Positions 4,100 through 63,079 are shown, numbered from the stretch's first letter. The stretch: DNA of 64,000 nt from Candidatus Eiseniibacteriota bacterium (GCA_963823555.1 CAWGMA010000002.1:640001-704000); one strand, 5' to 3'. Program-made: numbers and translations. Notes: generated by a model from the letters alone, not told the origin.

Positions 4100-4816
4100 T
4101 CAATCGGCTGCCCGGCCGCCAAGCCGCGCGATCGCAGCGCGCGTGCCGCCGGGATCGTTAGTCAGGACCGCATCCACATCCATCTCGATGTAGCGCGGCA
4201 GCCGCCGGTTGAGATCCGGGTCGAGCGGACAGACGAGCTGCCCGCGCCGGTGGGCGAGGCGCACGTAGAAGGGATTCAGCTTGAGGAGCGTCCAGTAGGG
4301 CCCGAGAAGCTCGGTCGGCTGAGTCGGCAGCGGGTTGTGGATGGAGATATGACCGGTCGGGCACCCCGGGGCCACCGCCTTGAGCTGCTTCACGCGCTCG
4401 AGCTGGAACGAGATGGCGAAGACAGACCGCGCCCCGATGCGCTCGGCGATCGCTCCCGCCAGAGCTTGCGCCGCATCCGCGGTGGCGAATCGCGGATCCT
4501 TGAGCTCGAGGGCGAGGAGGATGCGCGGCGACATCCCGGCGAGGACCTCGGCGAGGGTCGGGATCCGCTCGTCGGGAAAGCGGTCGGCGAAGCGCGAGCG
4601 CACGCGCAGCGCCTGGATCTCGGCGAGCGTGACCGCGCTCACCGGCCGCGGATCGCCGGTCATGCGCTCGAGCGTCGCATCGTGATGGCAGACGAGGTGG
4701 CCGTCGGCCGTGAACCAGAGATCGGTCTCGATGATGTCGGCCCCGGCCTCGACCGCAAGCTGGAACGCGGCGGGCGTGTTCTCCGGCGCATGGTCGGAGT
4801 CGCCGCGATGGGCCAT
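4100..4816 (-). CDS. Glycerophosphodiester phosphodiesterase family protein (start may be slightly upstream)
   Basis: AHRG...PENT...IETD...HD.TLERMT...ELK...TNDP motifs. Confidence 0.9.
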   Translation of the reverse strand: MAHRGDSDHAPENTPAAFQLAVEAGADIIETDLWFTADGHLVCHHDATLERMTGDPRPVSAVTLAEIQALRVRSRFADRFPDERIPTLAEVLAGMSPRILLALELKDPRFATADAAQALAGAIAERIGARSVFAISFQLERVKQLKAVAPGCPTGHISIHNPLPTQPTELLGPYWTLLKLNPFYVRLAHRRGQLVCPLDPDLNRRLPRYIEMDVDAVLTNDPGGTRAAIARLGGRAAD

Positions 4817-5121
4817 GACGTAGGGCCGCGGGCGGCCGGCGAGGGGATTGGGCTCGGTTCGGATCGGGGTCTCCCGGGTTCGGGTGACGGCGGCAGCCCG
4901 GCAAGGCTAGCCGATGCCCGCCCCGGCCGCCAGGAGTCGCGCGCGGGGGTTTGACAGCGATTTGACGACCAGTCACCGGCAGGCGGGATCGGAATCAAGG
5001 ATGGGGGATTCCGGCCCGCGTCGGGTGGGGCGAGGGCCCCGCCGGGGGGCGCCGGGCCGGGACTTCTCCATCCGGGCGACCCCGTCGGGCGCCGCTCGAG
5101 GCATCACCGAGGAGGGAGAGG

Positions 5122-17012: not shown

Positions 17013-17114
17013 TCGCGCGGTCGGGTCGTATCGAGCATCCGACGAGGCGAGCCGATGCGCGACAGCTGCCCATCAGGCAGCGCGATCGGCTCCTGCGCAT
17101 AGCGAGTTCGTGTT

Positions 17115-17324
17115 TTGGGGATGGAGCAGATCATTACCGCGCCGCGTAGTCCCTGGCAGAACCCGTACGTCGAGCGGCTGATCGGCACCCTCCGCCGCGA
17201 GTGCCTCGACCACGTCATCGTGATGAACAAACGGCACCTGATAGGCATTCTCCGGAGCTACTTCCGCTACTACCACGGCTGGCGCACGCACCTGGCTCTC
17301 GACATGGACGCTCCGGAGGGGTGA
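17115..17324 (+). mobile_element. Integrase-core (rve, IS3/IS481-like) transposase fragment
   Basis: TAPRSPWQNPYVERLIGTLRRECLDH...YY...RTHLALD.DAP. Confidence 0.85.
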
Positions 17325-25293: not shown

Positions 25294-27627
25294 CTAACCG
25301 AGCTCCAGATCGAATTCGGGCGGGCCGACGGTGACGATGCCGAGGTAGCCGTCGACGGTGACGAGCTCGCCGTCGTCGAGCAGCTGGGTGGCATCGTGGA
25401 CACCATTGACGCAGGGGATCCCGAGCTCGCGAGCGATGATCGCACCGTGGATCAGCATGCCTCCGCGTCGCTCGACGATCGCCCGGGCCAGCGGCACCAG
25501 GTGCGTGATCGTGGGTTGAATGGCATCGCAGACGAGGACGTCTCCTTGCCGGAACCGTCCCATATCCTCGAGGTGCCGGAGGCAGCGGACGCGACCGGTG
25601 GCGACCCCGGGCGCCGCCGGCTGGCCGATCAGCTGCCTCGGTGTCTCGCCGCGATCGACGGGGGCGGATCCGCCTTCGACACCGGACCTGGCGACCGGCG
25701 GTGCCTCGATCTCGACCCGCTCGCCGCGCTCGCCGCGCGAATCGCGCAGGGCGTGCGCGATCCGGGCGATGGTCGAGGCGTCGGGCCCCGGCTCTCCGAT
25801 CAGCCGGCCGGCGGCCCTGAGCCGCCCCGCCGCCAGATCGAGGGCGCGCAGGAGCTGGCTCTCGATGCGGCCGACCAGCAGGTTGTCGTCGTCCCTGAGC
25901 TTCCAACTCAGGCGACCGGTCTCGATGACCTCCATCGCCTCGCCGTGGCGCTCGGGGCCGACCGCGTCGAACAGACGTCGCTCGAGATCCGCGGGGTCGT
26001 GACCCGCGACCGCTCCGTCATCGGCCTGGCGCGTACTGCCCACGTCCTCGGATCCACGAGTCAGTTCGAGAATGATCCTGACGAGCGGGCCCGCGTCGTC
26101 GGCGAGGCGGCGATGCTCGTGGGCGACGTCGAAGAAGCGCTCGCTCAGCTCTTCGAACCTGGCGGCCCACTGGTCGGCGCCGCCGCCGCCGCGAATCGAC
26201 TCCCGCACATCCGGCCACGGCAGCGGGCCGGCGCCTCGGGCCTCGACCAGCCGGCCGAGCGCCGCGCGCAGCTCAACGTGGTCCCGGAGGCTCTCCGCCA
26301 GCCCTCGCAACGCCCGGTTCCGCTGGCTGGCCATCAGCGTCTGGTCCCGGAGCAGGCCCACGAACGCGTAGGGGTCATCGGGGCGAACGGCGTCGTTGAA
26401 GTAGAGCGCCAGCCGCCGGACGCCGTGCGCGAACGGGATGAACTCGTCCCAGTAGATCTTCTTCCAGCGCTCGAAAGATTCGAGCCTCTCCTCGAGGGCG
26501 TCGGCGAGCTCGCGATCGCTCGACCGCTCGAGCTTGGCATCGGCCAGGCGCCGTCCCTCCGCCCGCAGCTCCGGGATCAGCTCGTCGGCGACGCGCCGGC
26601 GAAGACGACGGAGGCGCTCGTCGCCCGGGCGCAGGGTCAGGTACCAATCGCGTGGATCATCGGGGTCGGGGGCGCGTGTGGTGATCGGGCGGGATTGTAG
26701 GATCGTCAGCGCCTCGGCGCGCCCGGTCCATTCCATGTCCGGATCCCAGCGGAAGAGCTCCTCGACCGAGAAGAGCGCGGTCAGGATGGCATCGAGATCA
26801 CGGGTCTCGAGGAGAGGCTCGGCGTCGGAATCGGCGCCGTGCTCGCCCGCGGCCTCGCTTTCGCCATCGCCGGCCGCCAAGCGTGCGCCGGGCCTCCAGC
26901 TCACGACGCGCCTCGATTGGCGATCGATCTGCCAGTGATCGGGATCCACCAGCCCGTCGACCAGGAGGCTGCAGGGACCGGGCACCGCCTCGATGATCGC
27001 CTGCTCGGCGCCGGGGCTGCGAGGATCGCGACCGAACGCGACGCCCGACCGATCGGCGAGCACCATCTCCTGAACCAGCACGGCCATGCGACTGTGGGCC
27101 GGGTCCAGGTCGAGCTCGCGGCGGTAGAGGAGGGCCGCGTCCGACCAGAGGGAGGCCCAGACCAGCCGGATGGCATCGGCGAGCGCCGCGTCTCCGGAGA
27201 CCCCGGTCACCGACTCGTGCAAGCCGGCGAAGGATCGGCCGGCCGAGTCCTCGCCGGGAGCCGACGATCGGACCGCGAGCGACGCCGGCGCGCCAAGCGA
27301 TCTCCGCGCCTCGGTGATCGCCCGCGTGAGCTCGAGCGAGAGCGGGTGACCGAGGAAGAGGGAGCGAATGCGTAACGCCGCGTCCCAGATCTCCTCCCAG
27401 CGCATCTCGTCCAGCGACTTGCGACCGAGCTCCATGCGAATGGCGCCGTCGATCCCATGGCCGGCGGCGAAGGACTCGTAGGCGTGCACGGTGATCGCGA
27501 ACCCGGGCGGCACGCGAAAACCGGCGGCGGCGAGACGCGCGGTCGAGGATGCCTTGCCGCCGACGATCGCTTCCTCTCCGCACCTCGAGTCCGACAGCGG
27601 CACTACGAGGGGTCGGACGGAATCCAC
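25294..27627 (-). CDS. PEP/pyruvate-binding (ATP-grasp) + PEP-utiliser His-swivel enzyme (RPH/PEPS-like phosphotransferase)
   Basis: VGGKA, VPPGF, AVRSSAPGEDS..SFAG, MAVLVQEM, DMEW, ILQSRPITT, GGMLIHGAIIARELGIP; no PEP-binding C-terminal barrel. Confidence 0.88.
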   Translation of the reverse strand: MDSVRPLVVPLSDSRCGEEAIVGGKASSTARLAAAGFRVPPGFAITVHAYESFAAGHGIDGAIRMELGRKSLDEMRWEEIWDAALRIRSLFLGHPLSLELTRAITEARRSLGAPASLAVRSSAPGEDSAGRSFAGLHESVTGVSGDAALADAIRLVWASLWSDAALLYRRELDLDPAHSRMAVLVQEMVLADRSGVAFGRDPRSPGAEQAIIEAVPGPCSLLVDGLVDPDHWQIDRQSRRVVSWRPGARLAAGDGESEAAGEHGADSDAEPLLETRDLDAILTALFSVEELFRWDPDMEWTGRAEALTILQSRPITTRAPDPDDPRDWYLTLRPGDERLRRLRRRVADELIPELRAEGRRLADAKLERSSDRELADALEERLESFERWKKIYWDEFIPFAHGVRRLALYFNDAVRPDDPYAFVGLLRDQTLMASQRNRALRGLAESLRDHVELRAALGRLVEARGAGPLPWPDVRESIRGGGGADQWAARFEELSERFFDVAHEHRRLADDAGPLVRIILELTRGSEDVGSTRQADDGAVAGHDPADLERRLFDAVGPERHGEAMEVIETGRLSWKLRDDDNLLVGRIESQLLRALDLAAGRLRAAGRLIGEPGPDASTIARIAHALRDSRGERGERVEIEAPPVARSGVEGGSAPVDRGETPRQLIGQPAAPGVATGRVRCLRHLEDMGRFRQGDVLVCDAIQPTITHLVPLARAIVERRGGMLIHGAIIARELGIPCVNGVHDATQLLDDGELVTVDGYLGIVTVGPPEFDLELG

Positions 27628-28124
27628 TGGCGGACCTCCTGGAATCGGTGGACGTGGAGGTAGCGGATGACGTCGACGCGGAAGAGGGCGCAGGAGGGTG
27701 CGGCGACGAACGACTCGAGATACGGGTGGCGACGGATCAGCAGCTCGGCCCACCGATCATGATCGCCGCGGTCACGCGAGGTCTCCTGGACTCGACCGGT
27801 CACCGTGACCGCCTCGATCTCCATCAGCTCTCCCGAGCGATCGGGCCGATTGTCGATCAGGAGAGCGACATGATCGCACTCGGTGAGAAGGCGATACTTC
27901 CGCGTCGCGGTCGGTGTGGCGAAAACCGCGTGCCTCATGTCATCGGTGAAGGCGAAGGCCACGAGCGATCCGTAGGGCTGTCCCTCGCCCTGCGTGCAGA
28001 GCACGGCATAGGGTTGGCCTCGCACCAGACCACGGATCCGATCGCGAAGCGGCGGCTCCGGGCCGGCCGCGCCTGTGGGGTGCGGCGCTTCAGACTCGAA
28101 CAGCGGCTCGTCGGGTTGGGGCAT
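27603..28124 (-). CDS. Pyridoxamine 5'-phosphate oxidase-like (split-barrel) protein
   Basis: YAVLCT...PYGSLVAF...FATP.ATRKY...VALLIDNR...AVTVTG. Confidence 0.8.
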   Translation of the reverse strand: MPQPDEPLFESEAPHPTGAAGPEPPLRDRIRGLVRGQPYAVLCTQGEGQPYGSLVAFAFTDDMRHAVFATPTATRKYRLLTECDHVALLIDNRPDRSGELMEIEAVTVTGRVQETSRDRGDHDRWAELLIRRHPYLESFVAAPSCALFRVDVIRYLHVHRFQEVRQWIPSDPS

Positions 28125-34565: not shown

Positions 34566-34716
34566 ATGGCCGTGTGCTGCCGCATCGAGCTTTTCGGCGG
34601 TCTCCGAATCGTGCGCGGAGAGTCCACGCTCACCCGCTTTCCGACGCACAAGACCGCCGCACTCCTTGCCTATCTCGCCTATCACAGCGACCGCGCGCAT
34701 CCCCGTGAGAGTCTGG
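34566..34716 (+). pseudogene. N-terminal fragment of a SARP/BTAD-type transcriptional regulator
   Basis: RIELFGGLRI...KTAALLAYLAY...HPRESL, cut exactly at the 216-bp element. Confidence 0.75.
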
Positions 34717-34932
34717 GCGCATAGGATCTTTCATCGGCCCTTTGGCCTGACCTCAGGTGTAGGACGGGGGATTGGGGAAGGGAAGGAGCGTGTCGGGGGG
34801 AAGCGGAGGGGCCCATGGCGCCGCGATGGCACGGCGGGGCGATGGCATCGGCCCATTGCTGAGCGCGGCGCGCGGCTAGGGCACGGAGGTCCCCCACCAC
34901 TCCGGCGGGATGCGCGGAGCGTCGCGGGGTTC
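34717..34932 (-). mobile_element. 216-bp ISCR/IS91-type oriIS mini-element, copy 1
   Basis: Matches the region downstream of the transposase (61207-61433); minus strand runs GAAC...GAAAGATCCTATGCGC; same ends as 52934-53149. Confidence 0.8.
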
Positions 34933-35186: not shown

Positions 35187-35576
35187 ATGGGACGTCAGCA
35201 TTCACAACCTGCCGGAGCAGCGAGCGCCGGCGGAGCCCAGGTCGACTACGACCACATCGTCACCGGCACCACCGGCTTTCCCGGTGGCAGCGTCCTCGAG
35301 GCGATCCTGCCCGAGGTCGAGGGCCGCGTGTTCGTGATCGGCTGCTCTGCCCCAGAGCGCCCGCCCGCCGAGCGTCTGTCCTCGATCACCCGCCGGGCCG
35401 TAGGTGCCGATCGCATCGTGCCGATCGTCGGCACCGACAACCTGGCCGCCGCGCATGGGGAAGAGTTCGTCGAGTCGGTCGCGGCCATCGACGGCGCGGT
35501 GTCACGAACGCTGTTCCACCGTTACTTCCGCCGCCGGCCGAGCGCGGAGGTGCGCAATGGCCGCGTGCGCTACTGA
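35187..35576 (+). CDS. Hypothetical protein (start uncertain)
   Basis: GC3-biased ORF overlapping the start of the next gene. Confidence 0.45.
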   Translation: MGRQHSQPAGAASAGGAQVDYDHIVTGTTGFPGGSVLEAILPEVEGRVFVIGCSAPERPPAERLSSITRRAVGADRIVPIVGTDNLAAAHGEEFVESVAAIDGAVSRTLFHRYFRRRPSAEVRNGRVRY

Positions 35577-36780
35577 GCGCCCCGCAGCGCGTGAAGGGCC
35601 AGGGCGCGCGCTCGCCGCGCCGGGCACCGTACGCGATGTGGCGCTACTCGCGCTGCTCGCGCTCTGGGTGGGCGGGGCCGGGCCGGCGCGAGCCGGCACG
35701 GCGCTTGAGTGGCGCGGCGAGGCGTCCGCGATGGGCATCTTCGGTGACCGCGAACAGGTGACGCCCGGGGTGCGGCTGCGCTACGTGCCCGAGGCGCTGG
35801 TGACTTGGAAGGCCCGGCCGGGGCTGTCGTTCGACGCGGATGCGGCCGGCGAGTTGCAGGCGGAAACACGCTGGCCGCGCGATGCACCGGTCGAGACCGA
35901 CACCGATGCGTCGTTCTACCGGCTGTGGGCGAGCGTGGCGGGGTCGGCGACCGAGGTGCGCGCGGGCCTGCAGCAGGTCGACTTCGGCTCGGCCACGCTG
36001 CTGCGGCCGCTGATGTGGTTCGACACCCTCGATCCACGCGACCCGCTCAAGGCGACCGCGGGAGTGTGGGGGGTACGTTGGCGCCAGTCGCTGCCGTACG
36101 GCGCTGGGTTGTGGGCGTGGGGCCTACTCGGCAACGACGAGCGCCGCGGCTGGGACCTGCTGCCCTCGTCCGGCGACGAGCCCGAGGCCGGAGCGCGGTT
36201 GCAGGTTCCCGTGCCTCGTGGCGAGGTCGCCGGCGCCTACCATCACCGCACCGCGGAGTTCGCGCTCCCCGGCACGCCGGGCGCGCCGCCGATGTCGCAG
36301 GAGATCGCCGAGGACCGCTTCGGCTTCGACGCGCGGTGGGACGTCGGCATCGGCGCGTGGCTGGAGGGCTCCTGGACGGACCTGCGCGACACGCCGCTGT
36401 CCGGCGGCTGGCAGAGCGCGCTGTGCGCGGGCGGGGACTACACGTTTGGCGTGCTCGACGGCCTCACAGTCGCCCTCGAGCACATGCGCCTCGACGCTTC
36501 AGACGACCCGCTCGCGCGCGGCACGGGTCGCGACCTGACCGCGTTCTCGGTATTCCTGCGCCTCGGCGTGCTCGACACGGTGCGCGGGTTCGGGTTCAAG
36601 GACTGGGAGACCGGCGCGGACAGTCAGGTGATCGAGGTGCGGCGCACGTGGGACCACTGGAGCGTGCACCTTCTCGGATTCCGCGGCGGCGACGCGCTGG
36701 GCGCATTCGGCCCGGACGGGGCGTTCCCCGCCGGCAATGGGGGGCAGCTGATGCTGGTCTACCAACACGGGACGGAGTAG
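35557..36780 (+). CDS. Probable outer-membrane beta-barrel protein
   Basis: GGAGG RBS, signal peptide, RAGLQQVDFGSATLLRPLMWFD..DPRDP, alternating beta-strand pattern. Confidence 0.7.
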   Translation: MAACATERPAAREGPGRALAAPGTVRDVALLALLALWVGGAGPARAGTALEWRGEASAMGIFGDREQVTPGVRLRYVPEALVTWKARPGLSFDADAAGELQAETRWPRDAPVETDTDASFYRLWASVAGSATEVRAGLQQVDFGSATLLRPLMWFDTLDPRDPLKATAGVWGVRWRQSLPYGAGLWAWGLLGNDERRGWDLLPSSGDEPEAGARLQVPVPRGEVAGAYHHRTAEFALPGTPGAPPMSQEIAEDRFGFDARWDVGIGAWLEGSWTDLRDTPLSGGWQSALCAGGDYTFGVLDGLTVALEHMRLDASDDPLARGTGRDLTAFSVFLRLGVLDTVRGFGFKDWETGADSQVIEVRRTWDHWSVHLLGFRGGDALGAFGPDGAFPAGNGGQLMLVYQHGTE

Positions 36781-36782
36781 CG

Positions 36783-37529
36783 ATGACGGGAACTGAAGTG
36801 CGCCACGGCAGGTCGGACGGGCAGCCCGTCATCCGCACTCGTGACCTGGTCAAGACCTACCCGATGGGCGGTGAGACGCTCACCGCGCTCGACCGCGTCA
36901 GTCTCGACGTGGCGCGCGGCGAGTTCGCCGGGCTCGTGGGGCCGAGCGGTTCGGGCAAGACCACACTGCTCAACATCGTCGGCTCGCTCGACGTGCCCAC
37001 CTCGGGCAGCGCGCACGTACTGGAGCGCGACATCGGTGCGCTCGCAGAGAGCGAGGCGTCGGCGCTACGCAATCGATACATCGGGTTCGTGTTCCAGACC
37101 TTCAACCTGCTGCCGGCGTACACGGTGGCCGAGAACGTCGAGTTCCCGCTGCTGTTGCTGCGGGTGGCAGCCGCCGAGCGGCGTGCACGGGTGACGCGAG
37201 CGCTCGAGCTGGTGGAGCTCGCGGACCGCGGCGGGTCGCGCCCGCACCAGCTGTCGGGGGGCCAGAGCCAGCGCGTCGCGATCGCGCGCGCCATCGTCAA
37301 GGAACCCGAGTTGGTGCTCGCGGACGAGCCAACCGCCAACCTCGACGTGCGCAACTCCCACAACGTCATCCAGATCATGGAACGACTGAACCGTTCGCTC
37401 GGGACCACGTTTCTGTTCTCGACCCACGACGAGAAGGTCATCCGCTACCTGCGCCGCGTCATCACGCTCGCTGACGGGCGTGTGGAACGCGATGAGCGCC
37501 GCGAACCGCCGACTGGAGGCGGGGCATGA
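36783..37529 (+). CDS. ABC ATP-binding protein (LolD/MacB-type)
   Basis: [44 protein letters not shown]. Confidence 0.95.
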
Positions 37530-38719
37530 TGCTGCTCGGGCTCGCGCTGCGCAACCTGCGTGCCGCCGGCACGCGCACCGTGCTCAACGTGGTGGTGTTG
37601 TCGCTGGTGTTCGTGACCATCGTCGCCGCCCAGGGCTTGCTGGCGGGCATGAACCGCCAGATGACACGCGCCAGCCTCGAGGTCGAGTACGGCGGAGGGC
37701 AGTTCTGGAACGAGGCCTGGGACCCGTTCGACCCGCTCACGCTCGAGCGCGCGCACGGTTCGCCCGGCGTGGCGCTCGGCGCGCTCGAGGCCGACGGGCG
37801 CGCCGCGCCGGTGCTGGTGCTGTCGGGCGCGCTGTACCGCGAGGGCCGCATGCGCCCGGTGCTGCTCAAGGGCGTGCCGCCCCACCAGCGCGCGGTGGCG
37901 TTGCCGACCGCGGTGCTCGACGGCGACGCCGCGCGGCGCGCGACAGCCGAGGGCGCGATCCCCCTGCTGGTGGGAACTCGCATGGCGCGCACCGTGGGCC
38001 TCGCCGAGGGCGACGCGGTGGTGTTGCAGTGGCGCGACCGCGCGGGTGCTTTCGACGCGCGTGAGGGCCGCGTCGTCGCCATCATGAACACGCCGGTTCA
38101 GCGTGTGGACGTGGGACAGGTCTGGATGCCGCTCGCGACTCTGCGCGCGCTCTCCGGGATGGAGGGCGAAGCCACGCTGGTCACGCTCGCGGCCGGCATG
38201 CGACCGCCGCCACCACCGCCCGGCTGGGCTTTCCACGACACCGGCGAACTGCTGGCCGACGTGCACCGGGTCGTGCGGGGCAAGGCGATCGGCTCGTGGT
38301 TCGTTTACTCGCTCCTGCTGATGCTCGGCCTTCTCGCCATCTTCGACACCCAGGTCCTTTCGATCTTCCACCGCCGGAAGGAGATCGGCACGCTGATGGC
38401 GCTCGGCATGACACGCCGCCAGGTGGTAACGTTGTTCACGCTCGAGGGTGCGCTGCATGGGCTGTTCGCGGCTCTCGCCGGCGCGGCGTGGGCCACGCCG
38501 CTGCTGGCGTGGTTCGCGCATTCCGGCTGGAAGGTCACGGCCTCGACCGACCGCTACGGGTTCGCGCTCGGCGACCGCATCTACCCGCTGTACGGCGCGG
38601 GCCTGGTGTTCACGACCATCCTCGTGGTGCTGGCGGCAACCACGGTGGTGGCGTGGCTGCCGGCGCGGCGCATCGCGCGCCTGCGGCCCACCGAGGCGCT
38701 GCGCGGGAGGCTCGGGTGA
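37526..38719 (+). CDS. FtsX/LolCE-like ABC permease
   Basis: 1 TM + periplasmic domain + 3 TM; RRKEIGTLMALG, LRPTEALR. Confidence 0.9.
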   Translation: MMLLGLALRNLRAAGTRTVLNVVVLSLVFVTIVAAQGLLAGMNRQMTRASLEVEYGGGQFWNEAWDPFDPLTLERAHGSPGVALGALEADGRAAPVLVLSGALYREGRMRPVLLKGVPPHQRAVALPTAVLDGDAARRATAEGAIPLLVGTRMARTVGLAEGDAVVLQWRDRAGAFDAREGRVVAIMNTPVQRVDVGQVWMPLATLRALSGMEGEATLVTLAAGMRPPPPPPGWAFHDTGELLADVHRVVRGKAIGSWFVYSLLLMLGLLAIFDTQVLSIFHRRKEIGTLMALGMTRRQVVTLFTLEGALHGLFAALAGAAWATPLLAWFAHSGWKVTASTDRYGFALGDRIYPLYGAGLVFTTILVVLAATTVVAWLPARRIARLRPTEALRGRLG

Positions 38720-40059
38720 TCCGCTTCCTGCTCATGGGCCTGTTACGCGACCCGGCGCGCAGCCGCTTCCCGGTCGCCATCGTGCTGTTCGGCGTGGCGC
38801 TCACCGTTGTGCTGGTCAGCTGGGTGTCGGGCATCTCGAGCGACCTGGTGCGGACCAACGCGGCCTACGAGACCGGCCACCTCAAGGTGGTGTCGCGCGC
38901 CTACGCGCGCGAGTCCGACATGGCTCCCAACGACCTCGCGCTGCTGGGAGCGAGCGCGCTGCTCGACTCGCTGCGCGCGGCCGCACCGGGGTGGACGTGG
39001 ACCCCGCGCATCCGTATCGCCGGCCTGCTCGATGTGCCTGACGCCGCGGGGGAAACCCGCGCCCAGGCGCCCGTGCGCGGCCTCGGGCTGGCGCTCGCCG
39101 GGGAGGGCGCGCCCGAGCACGACCTGCTCGAGCTACGGCGCCTGCTGGCGCGCGGGCGGCTGCCCGCGGAGGCCGGCGAGATGCTGGCCACGGATGCGCT
39201 CGCGCGCCAGCTGGGGCTCGCGCCCGGTGACGTCGCCACGCTGGTGTCCTCGACCATGGACGGGAGCCTGACGACCTGGAACCTGCGCCTCGCCGGCACC
39301 GTGCGCTTTGGCATCGCCGCGCTCGACCGCGGCACTGTTCTCATCGACATCGCCGACGCGCGCGCGGCGCTCGACATGGACGATGCAGCGGGGGAGATCG
39401 TGGGCTTCGCACCGGGCGGCCTGTACGACGATGCGCGCGCGCGCCGCGTCGCGGAAGACCTGCGCGAGGCGGGCCTCGCGGGGGCGCCCGACGCCGCCGC
39501 TGCCGGCGATGACGCGGGCGCGGCGGGCGAGTTCGCGACCGACGAGTTCGTGACCGACGAGTTCGCGCCAGTGGTCCTGACGCTGCGCGAACAGGCGGGC
39601 CTGGGCCAGGTACTGGACCTGGCGTCCGCGGTCTCGGCGGCGCTGGTCGGTCTGTTCCTGGTGGTGATGTCGATCGTGCTGTGGAACTCCGGGCTGATCG
39701 CCGGGGTGCGGCGCTACGGGGAGATCGGGCTGCGGCTCGCGCTCGGCGAGGCGCGCCGCCACATCTACGGTGCGATGCTCGCGGAGTCCTTCATGGTGGG
39801 CGTGATCGGGTCGCTGGCGGGCACCGTGCTGGGACTGGCGATTTCGTACCGGCTCGAGGCGGTCGGTCTCGACCTCGGCTCGGTGTTGCGTCACTCCGAC
39901 ATGGTGGCCTCGAGCGTCATGCGCGCCCGCGTCACGCCCGCGTCGTGGGTCATCGGCTTCCTGCCCGGCGTCGGGGCGACGCTGCTGGGCACCGCCATCG
40001 CCTGGACCGGGGTGTTCCGCCGCCGCACCTCCCAACTGACGAAGGAGTTCGAGGCATGA
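38716..40059 (+). CDS. FtsX/LolCE-like ABC permease
   Basis: Same topology; RRYGEIGLRLALG. Confidence 0.9.
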   Translation: MIRFLLMGLLRDPARSRFPVAIVLFGVALTVVLVSWVSGISSDLVRTNAAYETGHLKVVSRAYARESDMAPNDLALLGASALLDSLRAAAPGWTWTPRIRIAGLLDVPDAAGETRAQAPVRGLGLALAGEGAPEHDLLELRRLLARGRLPAEAGEMLATDALARQLGLAPGDVATLVSSTMDGSLTTWNLRLAGTVRFGIAALDRGTVLIDIADARAALDMDDAAGEIVGFAPGGLYDDARARRVAEDLREAGLAGAPDAAAAGDDAGAAGEFATDEFVTDEFAPVVLTLREQAGLGQVLDLASAVSAALVGLFLVVMSIVLWNSGLIAGVRRYGEIGLRLALGEARRHIYGAMLAESFMVGVIGSLAGTVLGLAISYRLEAVGLDLGSVLRHSDMVASSVMRARVTPASWVIGFLPGVGATLLGTAIAWTGVFRRRTSQLTKEFEA

Positions 40060-40907
40060 TGCCGGATCGCCGCCCATCCCGCCGCCCCGAGGCCGCTCCC
40101 GGCGCGTCGGCGCTGCTCGTGCTGTTCCTCGCCGCCGTTCCCGCGCCACCGGTGCGCGCCGAGATGCCATCCGGCGACGATGTATTGCGGCGCGTGGACG
40201 CCAACATCGGCTCAGACACCAAGGCCACGCTCGCGACCATGATCATCCATGGCCGCCGCGGCAACCGCGAGGTCGGTATGCGGTCGTGGATCCAGGGCAT
40301 GGAGCGTTCGTTCACCGATTACCTGTCGCCGGCGCGCGAGCGTGGCACCCGCATGCTCAAGCTCAACGACATGCTGTGGACCTACAGCCCCGCGACCGAC
40401 CGTACCCTCCAGATCTCGGGCCACCTGCTGCGCAACGCGGTGCTCGGCTCGGACCTGTCGTACGAGGACCTGATGGAGGACCCGCGACTTCTCAACCTCT
40501 ACACCGCGACGGTTACCGACAGCGCGACCGTCGACGGCCGCGCGTGCTGGGTGCTCGATCTCCGTGCGCGCGACTCCAGCGTGGCCTACCCGTCGCGGCG
40601 CATCCACGTGGACCAGGAGCGCGGCGTGGTACTGCGCGAGGAGCGCTTCGCAAAGAGCGGTCGGCTGCTCAAGACGACCGAGGTGCGAGAGGTGGTGGCG
40701 ATGGGCGGACGCTGGGTGCCGACGCGGATGGTGTTCCGCGATGCCAACCGCGACGGTGGCGGCACCGAGTTCCTGGTCCACAGCATTGAGTTCGACGTGC
40801 GCATCCCGGAATCCCTATTCACCAAGGCCGCGCTGCGCCGCGGCGGGGAGGTTGACGCACCGGCACCGGCACCTGCTCCTGCTCCCACGCCTGTGCCCGC
40901 GCCCTGA
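40056..40907 (+). CDS. LolA-like outer-membrane lipoprotein-sorting protein
   Basis: SPARERGTRMLK...LWTYSP...LGSDLSYED...SGRLLKT...IPESLFTKAAL; Pro/Ala-rich tail. Confidence 0.85.
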   Translation: MMPDRRPSRRPEAAPGASALLVLFLAAVPAPPVRAEMPSGDDVLRRVDANIGSDTKATLATMIIHGRRGNREVGMRSWIQGMERSFTDYLSPARERGTRMLKLNDMLWTYSPATDRTLQISGHLLRNAVLGSDLSYEDLMEDPRLLNLYTATVTDSATVDGRACWVLDLRARDSSVAYPSRRIHVDQERGVVLREERFAKSGRLLKTTEVREVVAMGGRWVPTRMVFRDANRDGGGTEFLVHSIEFDVRIPESLFTKAALRRGGEVDAPAPAPAPAPTPVPAP

Positions 40908-40913
40908 GACCCC

Positions 40914-43433
40914 ATGCCCAACTTCGTCCCACTCCACTCACGGCGCGCCACCGATGCTGCGCTCACCGGCGGCAAGGCCGCCAGCCTCGCCAAGCTGATC
41001 CGTGCGGGCTTTCCTGTGCCAGCCGGCGTGGTGGTCACGACCGAGGCGTTCCGCCGCCTCAGACGATCCTGCGGCCTGCGACTTCCGGCGGCCGGCGCGC
41101 CGCTGACCGCCGAGGCTCTCGCCGAGGCCCGCGAGCGCATGATCCACGGGGCATGGCCGGACGGATTCGAACGCCGGCTGCTCGACCACACGCGTGCACT
41201 GCGCAGGCCCCTCGCTGTGCGGTCGTCCATGCGCGCTGAGGATGGCCTCGTCGCGTCGTGGGCCGGGCAACTTATTTCGCTGCTCGACGTGGCCGACGAC
41301 GCCGAACTGCTGCGGGCCGTGCGCCAGTGCTTCGCGTCGTGTTTCGGTGAGGACGCCGCCACCTACGCCCACCGGGCCGCGGGAGCCCCGGCCGCCGACC
41401 CGCTCGGCGATGTTGCAGCAGCGGTGCTCGTGCAGGAGATGGCGACGGCCACGGTGACCGGCGTCGCGTTCAGCGCAGACCCGCACAGCGGGCGGAAGTG
41501 CGTGGTGATCGAAGCCGCCGCGGGAGGCTCTGGGAGAGCCGTGGGGGGACGGGTCGTGCCCGACCGGTTCGTGGTGGATGAGCGCGGCGTGCTCGAGGAG
41601 TCTCGGCCAGCCCGGGCGGGCGCCCCGCTGCTCCCCGAGGCGCCGGTGCGGACACTCGCTGCGCTGGCTCGTGACTGCGAGCGATTTGCCGGCGAGCCGC
41701 AGGACATCGAGTGGGCATTGGACGGCGATCGCGCGACGCTGCTTCAGGCGCGACCCATCACCACTCTCAGCGGACAACACGTCTACTCGAACCGCCTCCT
41801 TCGCGAGTGGACGCCGGGACTCGTGGCCCCGCTCCTATGGTCTACTAACAGCCTCGGCATGACGCGCACCGTGTTCCACCGCGTGTTCACCAGCCTCATC
41901 GGCGAAAGTGACTTCGACTACAGCACGATCATTCGCCGCATCCACTCGCGGCTCTACGCCGACATGACGCTCATCGGCGGCCTGCTCGAACGCGCCGGGT
42001 TCCCCGCCAACACGTTCGAATGGATGCTGCGTGGCGACAAGGCGCGCTTCCGACCGCCCCGCATGACACCCCGTCTCGTACGCTCGGCCCTGCGCTTCTG
42101 CGTGTTCGCCTGGCGGAATGGGCGCCTCGATCACGAGGTCGAGAGGTTCATCGAGGAGCATGCCCGGCACACCGCACGCCTCCAGGACGTGGACTGGCCG
42201 GTCGCGGGAAACGAGGTGCTCGCATCCACCAGCCGCGATCTGCAGACGCTACATGGCCGCACGCAGTGGTATGCGTGGGTCAGCGCCCTCAACCTGCACA
42301 TCCGCGCCCGCATCCTGGGTCGCATGATCCGACGCCACGCACCCCACGTCGACGTCAAGGACCTTCTGCTCGGTCTGCGTGATGAAGCGGGTGCCAGCCC
42401 GGAGCGCGCGCTCGAACAGGTCGCGCGCGGGGCCGTCGGGCTCGACACCGCAACGCACCTGGCCATGCTGGCCGGCGACGACGACGCCATGCGGGCGCGG
42501 CTCGCCAAGGAAGTGAGCGGCCCGGCGCTCATGCGCGAGGTGGATCGACTGCTCGAACGCTTCGGCCACTTGAGCGCCAACGGCACGGACTTCACGCGGC
42601 CCACCTGGTCCGAGCAACGAGGCCAAGTATGGGTCGCGATCGCGCGCGCGCTACAATCCGGCGGGTCCGTCCAACGCGCTGGCAAATCCAAGCGGGCCGA
42701 TGCGGCGGATCGGGTCCGTGCGGGCTTCGGCCCGGTGAAGCGGCTGGTGTTCGAGCGGCTTCTGCGCTCGACGTCCCGGTGGATGCGCCTGCGCGAGCGT
42801 ACGAGTCTGCTCATGTCGAGGGACGCGGCTGAAATGCGGCGCGTGTTTCTCGAGCAGGGTCGGCGACTCGCGGTCGCCGGGGCCCTCGACGAAGCCCCCG
42901 ACGTCTTCATGCTGATGCTCGATGAGCTACACGAAGCGACCGGGGGTGAGCGGCCCCCCGCGGCGACCCGGGCGCTCGCGCGCCAGCGGCGGCGCGAGAT
43001 GGAGGAGGACGCTCTGATCGAACCCGAAGACACGCTGGCGGGCGAGCAGAGCGAGCGGGTGGTTCCGGCACCGGCAGCAGATCTCGAGTATCTGGTCGGG
43101 ATCCCGGCGAGTCCCGGGGTGCGGCACCTCACCGCGCGCCTCGTTCGGGACCCCACCGCGGTTCGCGGCGTGCTCACGGTGGACGACGCGCTCGTGACGC
43201 CGTTCACCGACGCCGGCTGGACGCTGCTGTTCGCCGAGGTCGGCGCAGTCGTCTCCGAGACCGGAGGCCAGCTTTGCCATGCGGCGATCGTCGCGCGCGA
43301 GTACGGGCTTCCCGCGGTGGTAAGCGTAAGGGATGCGCTGTCGCGCATCCGCGAGGGCCAGCGCATCGTCGTCGATGGCGGTGCAGGGCGGGTTTACCTT
43401 CACGATGGTGATGAAAGGGAAAGCGGCACATGA
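40914..43433 (+). CDS. PEP/pyruvate-binding + PEP-utiliser His-swivel enzyme (RPH/PEPS-like)
   Basis: GGKAASL, AVRSS.RAEDG..SWAG, VLVQEM, QDIEW, LLQARPITT, TDAGW, GGQLCHAAIVAREYGLP. Confidence 0.88.
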   Translation: MPNFVPLHSRRATDAALTGGKAASLAKLIRAGFPVPAGVVVTTEAFRRLRRSCGLRLPAAGAPLTAEALAEARERMIHGAWPDGFERRLLDHTRALRRPLAVRSSMRAEDGLVASWAGQLISLLDVADDAELLRAVRQCFASCFGEDAATYAHRAAGAPAADPLGDVAAAVLVQEMATATVTGVAFSADPHSGRKCVVIEAAAGGSGRAVGGRVVPDRFVVDERGVLEESRPARAGAPLLPEAPVRTLAALARDCERFAGEPQDIEWALDGDRATLLQARPITTLSGQHVYSNRLLREWTPGLVAPLLWSTNSLGMTRTVFHRVFTSLIGESDFDYSTIIRRIHSRLYADMTLIGGLLERAGFPANTFEWMLRGDKARFRPPRMTPRLVRSALRFCVFAWRNGRLDHEVERFIEEHARHTARLQDVDWPVAGNEVLASTSRDLQTLHGRTQWYAWVSALNLHIRARILGRMIRRHAPHVDVKDLLLGLRDEAGASPERALEQVARGAVGLDTATHLAMLAGDDDAMRARLAKEVSGPALMREVDRLLERFGHLSANGTDFTRPTWSEQRGQVWVAIARALQSGGSVQRAGKSKRADAADRVRAGFGPVKRLVFERLLRSTSRWMRLRERTSLLMSRDAAEMRRVFLEQGRRLAVAGALDEAPDVFMLMLDELHEATGGERPPAATRALARQRRREMEEDALIEPEDTLAGEQSERVVPAPAADLEYLVGIPASPGVRHLTARLVRDPTAVRGVLTVDDALVTPFTDAGWTLLFAEVGAVVSETGGQLCHAAIVAREYGLPAVVSVRDALSRIREGQRIVVDGGAGRVYLHDGDERESGT

Positions 43434-44239
43434 CACCGCATGTCCCGCTGGCGGTGCTCGCCGGCTACCTGCTGGGTTCGATCTCGACGGCCCGCCTTGT
43501 CACGCGCCTCGCCGCGCCCGGCGCGCGCGCGCGGCAAGGCACCACTCTCCGGCTGGAGGGCAGCGAGCACACAATGAAGCTGCGGACTGTGAGCGCCACG
43601 TCGGTCTCGCTTCAGATCGGACCTCGGTACGGGTTTCTCACCTACGTGCTCGACTTGCTGAAGATCGCGCTGCCGATGCTGCTCGTGCGCCACCTGTTCC
43701 CGGACCGCACGCTCTACCTCTGGTGTGGTGCCGCCGGCATGCTGGGCCACGTGTGGCCGGTTTGGCACGGATTCCGCGGTGGGCGCGGGATCTCGGTGGC
43801 CTACGGTGGCCTGCTCGTGATCGACCCCATCGGTGTCATCGTCACATCGCTTGCCGGCATGCTTCTCGGGCTCGTGGTCGTGCGCGACGTCATCGTAGCC
43901 TACATGGGTGGTGTCCTGCTCATCGTGCCGTGGGTGTGGCTGCGCACGCACGACGAAGCGGTGATCATGTGGGCGGTGTTCGTCAACATCGTCTTTTCCA
44001 TCGCCATGGTGCCGGAGATCCGCCAGTGGGTCCGGATTCGGCGCCAGGACAAGTGGAATGACACGGCAGAGGTCATGCAGCTATCGGGTATGCTGCGCGG
44101 GATCTTGCGGATGGGCATTGCGTTGCGCCTGGTGAAACGGCGCGACGTGCGCGCGCCAGCGCTCATGACCGAGCCGGGCAAAGAGAGAAGCGCGGAGGCC
44201 GGCGCGCGCCGAGACCCCGGCGAAGCTCCACATCGCTGA
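43430..44239 (+). CDS. Divergent PlsY-like (glycerol-3-phosphate acyltransferase family) membrane protein
   Basis: GYLLGSI, LDLLK, GHVWPVWHGFRGGRG; the canonical GxGNxGxTN and HxxN motifs are not present. Confidence 0.75.
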   Translation: MTPHVPLAVLAGYLLGSISTARLVTRLAAPGARARQGTTLRLEGSEHTMKLRTVSATSVSLQIGPRYGFLTYVLDLLKIALPMLLVRHLFPDRTLYLWCGAAGMLGHVWPVWHGFRGGRGISVAYGGLLVIDPIGVIVTSLAGMLLGLVVVRDVIVAYMGGVLLIVPWVWLRTHDEAVIMWAVFVNIVFSIAMVPEIRQWVRIRRQDKWNDTAEVMQLSGMLRGILRMGIALRLVKRRDVRAPALMTEPGKERSAEAGARRDPGEAPHR

Positions 44240-44373: not shown

Positions 44374-45010
44374 TGTTGCTCCCGAAAACCCATCTTACGG
44401 GGCAGAGGTCGAGTCGGGAGGCGGCCGGGAACACGGCGAGGGTCCGCGCGGCGCGGCTGTCGGGTGAACGAGGCAACAGAGGTAAGGGCCGGCTGGGTTG
44501 GGAACGTCGGCGTCCCCGTCATCCTGTGGCTGGCACGGGATAGATGGTCTGCGAGACGGGGTGGCTTCGTCGCTCGTCAGGCGGCTCGTCGCTCGTAATG
44601 GTGATGCAACCCGCTAACCTCGACGATCTCGACGACCGCGCCGGCTGTGTGCGGTTGAACCGAGCGGTGCTCAGGCGCAAAGGACATGGAACCTCACGGT
44701 CGGTACGACGAAGAAGTCGATGGCGACCGTGTCGGCCAGATGGTTCTTGAGGAACGCCTTCCAAGTTGGCGAGGACGGCTCTCGGGGTCGGACCATGTAC
44801 CGCTCGACGGTGGACTTCGCGACAGCGATGCCGATCTTGCGGAGTTCGCCGAGGACTCTGGGCTCGCCCCAGAGCGGGTTCGCGGAAGACATCCTTCGAA
44901 TGAGTTCGCGGACTTCCTTCGTGACCGCCGGGTGTCCAGGCCTGCCGGACTGGGAAAGTCTGCGCCAGTGATCGCGGAACCGACGCCTCTGCCAGGCGAT
45001 CACCGTCGAA
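44374..45010 (-). mobile_element. Remnant of an rve-family IS with internal deletion and right end
   Basis: WQRRRFRDHWRR...ANPLWGEPRVLGEL...IDFFVVPT joined to C-terminal GLHHHYERRAA*; 44374-44592 repeated at 47907-48125; end TGTTGCTCCCGAAAACCC. Confidence 0.85.
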
Positions 45011-61206: not shown

Positions 61207-62620
61207 GCGCATAAGATATTTCATGAGATATTTCATCGGGCTTTTGGCCTGACCTCAAGTGTAGGAGGGGGGATTGGGGAAGGGAAGGACGGCGTTGGGC
61301 GGGGGCGTGGTGGGTGCATGGTGCGCGATGGCACGGCGGGGCGATGGCATCGGGCGTCGGTGGGCGCGGCGTACTGCGACCGCACGGAGTTGTCCCATCA
61401 CTCCGGCGGGATGCGCGGAGCGTCGCGGGGTTCGCTGCCGTTTTGGGGCGGGCCGGTGGTGGTGGCATGGCTTGCCCATAGCCCCGTCACCAGCGCGGGT
61501 GAGGTGTCACGACGGTGGCGGCCGGGCCGATGGAGACCGCGAGGCGGGGGGTGCCTCACCAACATCGTCCAGCGGATCAGTGTCGAGCGGCGCTGCCTCA
61601 TCCCACATCTCAAGCGGGAGCTCGGTTGCGTCGGCTCGCGCCAGCGCTGGTGGTGCGGTGGGCAGGCGGAGATGGCGGATGACCTGATCGAGGTCAGCAC
61701 CTTGGGGTCGGAGATGAGGGCAAGGACGGCCATGGCGGAGGTGCAGCGGGGACAGCGCAGGGCGTCGAGGTGGAACACGCGGCAGAGCAGCTGGGCCCAG
61801 GGGAGCGAGCGTCGACGGTGGGGCATGGTGGTGGCGGGCGCGGGCGCCGCAAGCGGCGCGGTCGGAGTGAGCTCGGCTTCGGGGTCACGGTGCGGCTGAT
61901 CGCTGGCGGGTGGGCCCGGCGTGAGCGCGAGCGGTGGTGGTGGCGGTGGTGGTAACCGCGGGCGCCAGCGCGAGCGGTTGGCGAAGGCACCGTGATAGCG
62001 GACGAGATGGCTGTAGGGGGCGGGGACCAGAGCGGCGAGTCGGCGCAGGAGATCGAGGGGCTCGAGTACGAGCGAGGTCGCACCCTGGGCGTGGGGCCAG
62101 GGCCGGCGCAGGTGGTAGACGATGCGACCGTCGCTGCGCCGTGCGAGACGCCCTTGGGCGAAGGGAGCGCGCAGGCCGTAGCGGCAGAGGCGCTCGAGGG
62201 CAAGCCGATCGCCGGCGGCGACGGCGTGGGCGGCGTGAAGGGAGAAGCCGGCAACCTTGGCGCAGAGCGGTTTGGGTTCGGGCTCCCGGTCTTCGGGAAG
62301 CGCGAGCTGGGGTGAGGGAAGGGGTGGTGCGACGGCGGCGGCGAGGTCGCTCTGGAGTGCGGCGGCGATCGCCTCGAGAAGCGCCGTGGTCTCGCTCTCG
62401 TCATCGGTCCGCCGCTCGATAACGGCGGTGAGGCGGCGGGCGATCTTGAGGGTGAGGGCCTCGATCTCGGCGGTGGTGGGTGTGGGGAGCGGTACGAAGT
62501 CGAGCGGGTCACCATCGGTGCGGGGGACGAAGAGCCCATCGGGGAGGAGGCAGTGAACGTGGGGGTGGAGGTTGAGGGCGCCGCCGAAGCGCTGGACGAA
62601 GGAGACCGCTCCCGACTGCC
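61207..62620 (-). mobile_element. ISCR/IS91-type rolling-circle element, 5'-truncated transposase (61507-62620, frameshift near 61680) plus oriIS region
   Basis: HUH motif HPHVH, GFSLHA, single-Tyr RLCRY, LVRYHG, WAQLL.RVF, CPRC; N-terminal Zn-binding part absent. Confidence 0.9.
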
Positions 62621-63079
62621 CGCCCGCGATCTGACAAGTCGTTGCGGGCTTGCACGATATGTACTCCATCGCAGGTGTGGCTGATCGTCTCGTCAGGCTC
62701 GGCGCACGGCCATTCAGTTAACTGCCCAGGCTGGAAACCGGTCTCAACCTCTCAGATTCTCACCGACGCGCAGACGGCTGTTTAACGGGCGGCCCGTCCG
62801 GGGAGCCAAGTACCCGACGTGCGAACTCGTCGCCATCCGGCCAACAGCAACCCCTGTCTCAGGTGAGTCCAGGGTCTTTGGGCCTTTGTCGCCTGTCGGC
62901 ACTTGAAGCGCGAGACGAGCGGATCAGGCCAGGCCTCCAGCGGCTGCGGCGAACTCTCCAGGAAGTCTGGCTCCGGCACAGGCCCTTCGAATTTTGGATT
63001 GTCAGGCGTGCATGAATGAGAGAACCTGTGTTTCAGCCATTTCCTTCGGAGCGCGAACATTCCAATGAATCGGGGATTC

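Follow-up and report, generated by a model that had tools for sequence, protein, structure and literature searches.

PlsY is regarded as having one function and a glycerol-3-phosphate (G3P) pocket that hardly varies, and an ATP-dependent supply of acyl-phosphate to PlsY is provided by the fatty acid kinase FakAB. ATP-to-AMP chemistry can drive the formation of a high-energy product, and to our knowledge most dikinases resembling the rifampicin phosphotransferases (RPH) have no known substrate; ABC systems of the LolCDE/MacB type usually move their substrates outward. For the PlsX/PlsY pathway, the reference is the Aquifex PlsY (PDB 5XJ5-5XJ9): in the part of that work drawn on here (PMC5700162), the acyl-phosphate hole is given as His92, the backbone of residues 104-107 and Ala40/Thr41, and the G3P pocket as Ser35, Arg45, Lys104, Asn180, Ser142 and His177. 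For RPH (5FBS, 5HV1), the accessible part of the corresponding study names Lys22, Arg117, Thr136, Arg666, Glu667, Lys670 and His825 (PMC4844700).

An operon whose parts are all of known folds, and whose two enzymes fall outside the families that define PlsY and RPH, lies in the window analysed here, a stretch of 64,000 nt (G000:C2:640001-704000) of the host genome, G000. The seven co-oriented genes named in the preliminary description were recovered as ORFs on the plus strand with the same limits: a predicted porin-like outer-membrane protein of 407 aa (35557-36780; no Pfam or NCBIfam match), a LolD/MacB-type ABC ATPase (36783-37529; PF00005, ABC_tran), two FtsX/MacB-type permeases, the first of them LolCE-like (37526-38719; PF02687 and weak PF12704) and the second at 38716-40059 (PF02687), a LolA-like protein that is a predicted periplasmic carrier (40056-40907; PF17131, LolA_like, E 2.4e-50), a dikinase of RPH/PigC architecture (40914-43433; PF01326, PPDK_N, and PF00391, PEP-utilizers) and a PlsY-fold membrane protein (43430-44239; PF02660, G3P_acyltransf, 75.8 bits). 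The overlapping or near-abutting junctions were likewise found, being from first to last a gap of 2 nt, ATGA, GTGA, ATGA, a gap of 6 nt and ATGA. GC content is 71% in the cassette, compared with 67% in the genome. A short ORF overlapping the operon start (35187-35576, +) has only a PRK07201 SDR match (E 0.0066) and does not significantly match the reductases found at related loci; it is a possible, weakly indicated remnant of a Rossmann-fold reductase. Just 5' of the operon, a truncated regulator N-terminus (34566-34724) shares 48-69% identity with three further copies elsewhere in the genome, and 3' of the cassette lies an integrase-like fragment at ~44.7-45.0 kb (44686-45003) with weak HTH matches (Pfam). 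Integrase and transposase fragments in the window (17103-17321, 44686-45003 and 61401-62717) flank several gene blocks, and a glycerophosphodiester phosphodiesterase gene is found at 4103-4906 on the minus strand.

The dikinase comprises an ATP-grasp domain, a substrate domain and a C-terminal phospho-His swivel domain (H789), and the absence of a PEP-binding barrel reported earlier is evident from Pfam, which assigns PPDK_N to residues 17-224, PEP-utilizers to residues 758-825 and no barrel family. PEP synthase and PPDK have a central His domain and a C-terminal barrel, a layout that differs from the C-terminal His domain seen here, and the score against PEP synthase TIGR01418 is 190 bits (cut-off 740). 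The three-domain order and the phosphotransfer residues are shared with RPH: mapped through a Streptomyces RPH (P0155), K21, R103, S122, E266, R627, E628 and H789 align with the RPH catalytic residues, all phosphotransfer residues are intact and Thr136 of RPH is replaced by Ser (S122). Across 60 full-length linked dikinases, Arg627 is present in 59, Glu628 in 57 and His789 in 59. The AF2 model (pLDDT 86.9) finds RPH structures as its best Foldseek matches, with TM scores kept low by domain motion. In contrast to RPH, however, the enzyme has a membrane partner and other residues in the substrate pocket (Lys670 is replaced by Ser631, and Gln336/337 are also not kept), and it scores far under the family cut-offs (NF041857, 244 bits with a cut-off of 999; NF000283, 146 bits with a cut-off of 1700). 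The same applies to the PigC/RedH families (246 bits with a cut-off of 1300; 284 bits with a cut-off of 1350): the prodiginine ligases PigC/RedH/HapC have this architecture and activate their substrate through a phospho-His before bond formation, whereas here bond formation is predicted to occur on the separate PlsY-fold protein. Grouping with the rifampicin phosphotransferases, which had been named as the outcome that would speak against a new pathway, was found neither in the scores nor in the two trees, in which named RPH are represented by two NCBI-named rows only. With FastTree (93 rows), the dikinase falls within a 44-row group without any named RPH, the linked groups being unresolved at the root; with IQ-TREE (35 rows; a quick, unrooted search without bootstrap), 17 linked and 7 fused dikinases separate from 11 other RPH-like rows with an SH-aLRT of 100. 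The window holds a second ATP-grasp and His-swivel dikinase without barrel (25294-27753, minus strand), which sits on a long separate branch, was omitted from the IQ-TREE analysis for this reason, and has SDR, flavin oxidoreductase, PNPOx-like and AhpC-like genes as neighbours.

The PlsY-like protein carries the GYLLGSI and FRGGRG motifs, and GxGNxGxTN and the C-terminal HxxN are absent both from it and from all 74 family rows, in agreement with the preliminary description. Its fold is that of PlsY (Foldseek probability of 1.0 to 5xj5-5xj8; AF2 model against 5xj5 with Z 23.5 and an rmsd of 2.6 Å over 196 aligned residues), and its score against TIGR00023 is 64.9 bits, below the cut-off of 137.2. 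Sites were compared in an alignment of the rows passing a start-motif filter, namely 74 of 84 family ORFs, 16 of 30 canonical copies from carrier genomes and 52 of 80 fusion domains. The acyl-phosphate hole shared with PlsY is retained as H107 (His92), G117-G118-R119-G120 (GGKG) and A56-T57 (Ala40/Thr41); within the family, His92 and Gly102/103/105 are present in 74/74 rows, Lys104 is Arg in 68/74 and the hydroxyl of Thr41 is kept in 61/74. The G3P clamp is what sets this protein apart from PlsY: Arg45, Ser142, His177 and Asn180 correspond to L61, Y158, M193 and E196, and each of Arg45, His177 and Asn180 occurs in 0/74 family rows and Ser142 in 1/74, compared with 16/16 canonical rows. Position 180 is Asp or Glu in 70/74 family rows and in 52/52 fusions, usually preceded by proline, and a C-terminal MxRG tail, additional to PlsY, is conserved in 56/74 PlsY-like rows. 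The non-fused proteins do not retain Asn37, a residue that contributes to catalysis in PlsY, though an insertion makes the alignment unsure in both the Ser35 and Asn37 columns. The protein had been described as a catalytically altered PlsY homologue: this stands for the acceptor site and not for the catalytic chemistry, because the role of His177 is to bind G3P and not to act as catalytic base in the portion of the Aquifex study used here (PMC5700162). From the same portion, the activity left in Aquifex PlsY mutants is 3.3% for N180D, 5.1% for H177M and 25% for K104R (PMC5700162); the PlsY-like protein is therefore unlikely to acylate G3P, short of its site being restored by the conserved MxRG tail.

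The distribution of the pair was followed in the best 80 of 115 confirmed genome matches to the PlsY-like protein, which cover 13 named phyla plus 12 records without phylum and include 37 Chloroflexota loci. A dikinase match is present in 75 of these best 80 loci, within 350 bp in 68 of them, and lies upstream in 59 and downstream in 16; two of the five loci without a match are cut by contig ends and three are real, with full flanks. Over 55 gene pairs, the identity matrices of dikinase and PlsY-like protein correlate with a Spearman coefficient of 0.67 (0.65 over cross-phylum pairs), with the proviso that kin are not independent. A lack of synteny in other genomes, the other outcome that would have told against the proposal, was not observed: the two enzymes are linked to each other and usually to an FtsX-type ABC system too, with an FtsX-type permease in 63 of the best 80 loci and many of the other 17 cut by contig ends. 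The complete five-gene module is found in 24/80 loci (13 upstream, 11 convergent downstream), and the Chloroflexota loci mostly carry a long fused FtsX permease in its place. Thus, of the transporter-enzyme operon as first proposed, the enzyme pair is a fixed unit, also found fused, while the transporter is exchangeable. Other neighbours in the best 80 of 115 are a PGAP1-like hydrolase (25/80), a PEMT/ICMT-like protein (10/80), DUF454 (7/80), chelatase-like and chlorophyllase/PETase-like proteins (6/80 each), a PucC-type MFS protein (5/80) and an NAD_binding_4 reductase (3/80); prodiginine genes were not seen among the clustered neighbours. The chelatase-like protein beside the cassettes (L083:3015-4235, L053, L054, L071, L072 and L075) is conserved, with an N-terminal hydrophobic stretch and weak Ferrochelatase/CbiX matches, and the PucC-type MFS gene occurs in five other loci. 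Two loci, L028 and L048, contain two PlsY-like genes per cassette, L028 also having plsX within 10 kb.

The transport module shares its ATPase, two FtsX permeases and LolA-fold protein with LolCDE-LolA/MacB-type ABC systems, from which it differs in the LolA_like family of the latter protein, in an extra porin-like gene and in permease scores of 45 and 19 bits against the LolCE family TIGR02212 (cut-off 362). LolA-like homologues of more than 40% identity occur in 30 of the best 80 of 115 loci, and no close one was found in G001, a genome of the same genus, where a contig end cuts the cassette. Homologues of the porin-like gene are present in 24 of the same 80 loci. The outer-membrane label given earlier to this first gene is likely to be correct, but its porin nature has no Pfam match behind it: in the Atlas it lies nearest to clusters that are either without a name or named as porins, and 41% of one such cluster carries DUF1302. 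The true start of this gene (35557-36780) may be ~25 codons further 3', ahead of a hydrophobic stretch that resembles a signal sequence. An analogy with uptake by AupA was dropped, AupA being FadL-like and not a DUF1302 protein in the part of the report consulted (PMC5989066).

Relatives of both enzymes also occur as one polypeptide. In P0145, PF02660 is fused to PF01326 and PF00391, and a scan with this protein gave 243 confirmed metagenome matches, the best 80 of which (L091-L170) were kept, most with near full-length coverage; the fused protein, of ~950 aa, is widespread. The loci are likely cyanobacterial, as we assume from the types of neighbour. Within the fusion PlsY domains, His92 is replaced by Arg and Lys104 by Ala in 52/52, just as position 180 is acidic in 52/52 (Asp in place of Asn180), and the first two exchanges could mean that the domain is a non-catalytic anchor. 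A GDSL hydrolase lies beside the fusion in 35 of the best 80 of 243 loci, and a nearby FtsX permease was not seen at a single one of these 80. A search among longer proteins with alignment A1, which is a weak test, found no fusion close to the operon's own subfamily. In the tree of PlsY domains, long branches meet, and a shared origin of the two PlsY-like groups is therefore not demonstrated by the tree.

In the 50 of 80 carrier genomes that were searched, a second PF02660 match at E <1e-30, which scores as canonical PlsY, was found in 43 and PlsX in 47; the cassette is therefore normally an accessory, and its PlsY-like protein, whose partner is the dikinase and not PlsX, usually comes in addition to a normal PlsY. 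The host genus departs from this: neither G000 (92.5% complete) nor G001 (85%) has a match to PlsX, canonical PlsY, GpsA or GPAT_C. In both genomes rpmF is directly followed by fabD (G000:C1:1934003-1933743, gap 80 bp; L243 in G001) and der by merR (G000:C1:1404678-1404523, gap 155 bp; L235 in G001), at which places G003 and G004 have plsX and plsY-gpsA; the losses in G000 and G001 count as one event. Both keep cdsA, CDP-alcohol transferases, lgt, fabD/G/F-acpP and one Cmk-fused PlsC. This fusion of cytidylate kinase to the sole PF01553 acyltransferase is seen at L090:1327-2697 (G000:C1) and L271 (G001), with the two parts in different frames in G003, G005 and G006; frameshifts seem to be present in this assembly, the ribosomal S1 gene of L090 being one instance. 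A full canonical PlsY is found in 37/40 class relatives and PlsX in 18/20, and among the 40 G001 is the one with a close PlsY-like gene; like G000, it is without canonical PlsY. G079, another carrier, is without plsX, plsY and gpsA and has six PF01553 matches and GlpK, G005 has no plsY or gpsA match and no cassette, and a GpsA match is absent in 20/50 carriers, 18 of them besides G000/G001 and mostly Chloroflexota. No gpsA or glpK match was found in G000; GlpD-like and GDPD genes could supply G3P. A second lipid operon is present in the host genus (G000:C1:2187229-2197545, L292:7230-17546; L294 in G001; in part in G002, L297) and encodes a fatty acyl reductase (PF07993 and PF03015), a 641-aa protein, a HAD phosphatase, a membrane protein, a zinc dehydrogenase, a LarA-like protein and a DAGK-family lipid kinase. 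The 641-aa protein has an HX4D-like motif (PTHQSxxDH) in 8/10 aligned rows and no Pfam or NCBIfam match, and is rare (41 relatives among 1.84 billion representatives). This operon is possibly an ether-lipid or acyl-DHAP route that could replace PlsX/PlsY and so could explain the losses in the host genus; G002, which has part of it, keeps plsX and plsY. At L223, a putative inositol-phosphate synthase adjoins a CDP-alcohol transferase, which suggests inositol lipids in the host.

With architecture, residue pattern, linkage, fusion and separation from RPH established, the explanation that we prefer, and to which we give an even chance of being right, is that the dikinase works with the PlsY-fold protein as a self-contained acyl-transfer unit with an acceptor other than G3P and a product moved by the ABC system; the pair would thus likely build a membrane lipid by an undescribed route. 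The dikinase would convert ATP to AMP and Pi via phospho-His789 and turn a lipophilic carboxylic acid into its acyl-phosphate, from which the PlsY paralogue would transfer the acyl group to the acceptor. With an acidic residue in the place of Asn180, this acceptor is likely to be a neutral alcohol or an amine. Removal of the lipid product from the inner membrane would fall to the FtsX/LolA/porin module, a direction that we infer from the family of the ABC system alone; where lipases lie nearby, they would either provide the acid or catalyse the reverse reaction. Neighbours of lipid type speak for this reading, namely the PGAP1-like hydrolase, the PEMT/ICMT-like protein and, beside the fusions, the GDSL hydrolase. 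Retention of the donor site, remodelling of the acceptor site, the fusion and ATP-to-AMP chemistry all fit the formation of an acyl-phosphate followed by non-G3P transfer. Such a supply would be like that of FakAB, whose fold is unrelated; a Dak2-DegV gene occurs in 3 of the best 80 of 115 loci, and no such match was found in G000. Against the pair reading stand the three full-flank loci with a PlsY-like gene and no dikinase, the fusions without His92 and the apparent loss of Asn37. Against a carboxylate as substrate stand the described reactions, with HapC and PigC phosphorylating a pyrrole aldehyde and RPH, in the part of the study drawn on, a hydroxyl (PMC4844700), and our literature search found no carboxylate precedent for RPH-type enzymes.

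This last point is answered better by a lipid-alcohol kinase acting in salvage, which we regard as possible though rather doubtful: the dikinase would phosphorylate the hydroxyl of a scavenged lipid (e.g. monoacylglycerol) that the PlsY fold only binds and presents, transporter and lipases would serve import, and lysophosphatidic acid or a comparable phosphomonoester would result. Import would run against the outward direction generally known for LolCDE/MacB-type systems. Lipase-like neighbours are common, but G000 has no match to the neighbouring lipase and possesses two DAGK-family kinases of its own. R627/E628 match Arg666/Glu667 of the hydroxyl-directed RPH, the scheme would circumvent GpsA, PlsX and PlsY at once, none of which is found at its locus in G000 or G001, and the active site of Aquifex PlsY accommodates monoacylglycerol according to the part of the work used (PMC5700162); however, the complete conservation of His92 and the phosphate hole (74/74 rows) exceeds what a passive binder needs. 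The gene losses also raise the question of a divergent PlsX/PlsY substitute, in which the dikinase would make acyl-phosphate and G3P would be acylated to lysophosphatidic acid via a rebuilt clamp (Arg119, Arg223). G000 and G001 keep cdsA, lgt and one plsC without canonical PlsY, plsX or gpsA, 37/40 class relatives have the canonical PlsY that G001, with its close PlsY-like gene, lacks, and G079 likewise has no plsX, plsY or gpsA. Even so, we hold this substitute to be very unlikely: the clamp residues are gone, with an acidic one at position 180, 43/50 carriers keep canonical PlsY, G000 is without gpsA and glpK, and the losses in G000/G001 are one event in genomes that both carry the reductase-HX4D-kinase operon, which could replace PlsX/PlsY, whilst G005 is without plsY and gpsA matches in the absence of a cassette and G079 has its six PF01553 matches and GlpK. 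Equally improbable in our judgement is detoxification and efflux, in which a lipophilic xenobiotic or a pigment, of rifamycin-like or tetrapyrrole type, would be inactivated by the dikinase, conjugated or anchored by the PlsY-like protein and exported by the ABC system. The RPH fold and the PucC-type MFS (5), chelatase-like (6), chlorophyllase/PETase-like (6) and DUF454 (7) neighbours among the best 80 of 115 loci point this way; the RPH score of 244 against 999, the loss of Lys670 and Gln336/337 and the separate branch point away from it. Tetrapyrrole-type neighbours are moreover rare, and close homologues were not found in G000 except for one DUF454 ~11 kb downstream: the chlorophyll/tetrapyrrole version ranks low because PucC, chelatase-like and chlorophyllase-like genes are each present in only 5-7/80 loci.

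A wider form of the preferred acyl-transfer reading, in which the pair would be a third acyl-phosphate route beside PlsX and FakAB and a G3P-independent entry to phosphatidic acid that allowed the host genus to lose plsX, plsY and gpsA, with a fused version of this chemistry in probable cyanobacteria, we consider unlikely. A literature search found no description of a dikinase-PlsY pairing or fusion within its incomplete coverage, which mostly lacks subscription papers. Our findings tie a whole branch of dikinases to a PlsY family in which the acceptor pocket has been rebuilt alike (Pro-Asp/Glu at 179-180), both as separate genes and as fusions. An orphan group of dikinases thereby becomes open to assay with two proteins, and the findings point towards a lipid or acyl conjugate that has not been described. 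For the host genus, in which the standard first steps of phospholipid synthesis are missing and the later ones are kept, the route to phosphatidic acid becomes a testable question, whichever operon is responsible.
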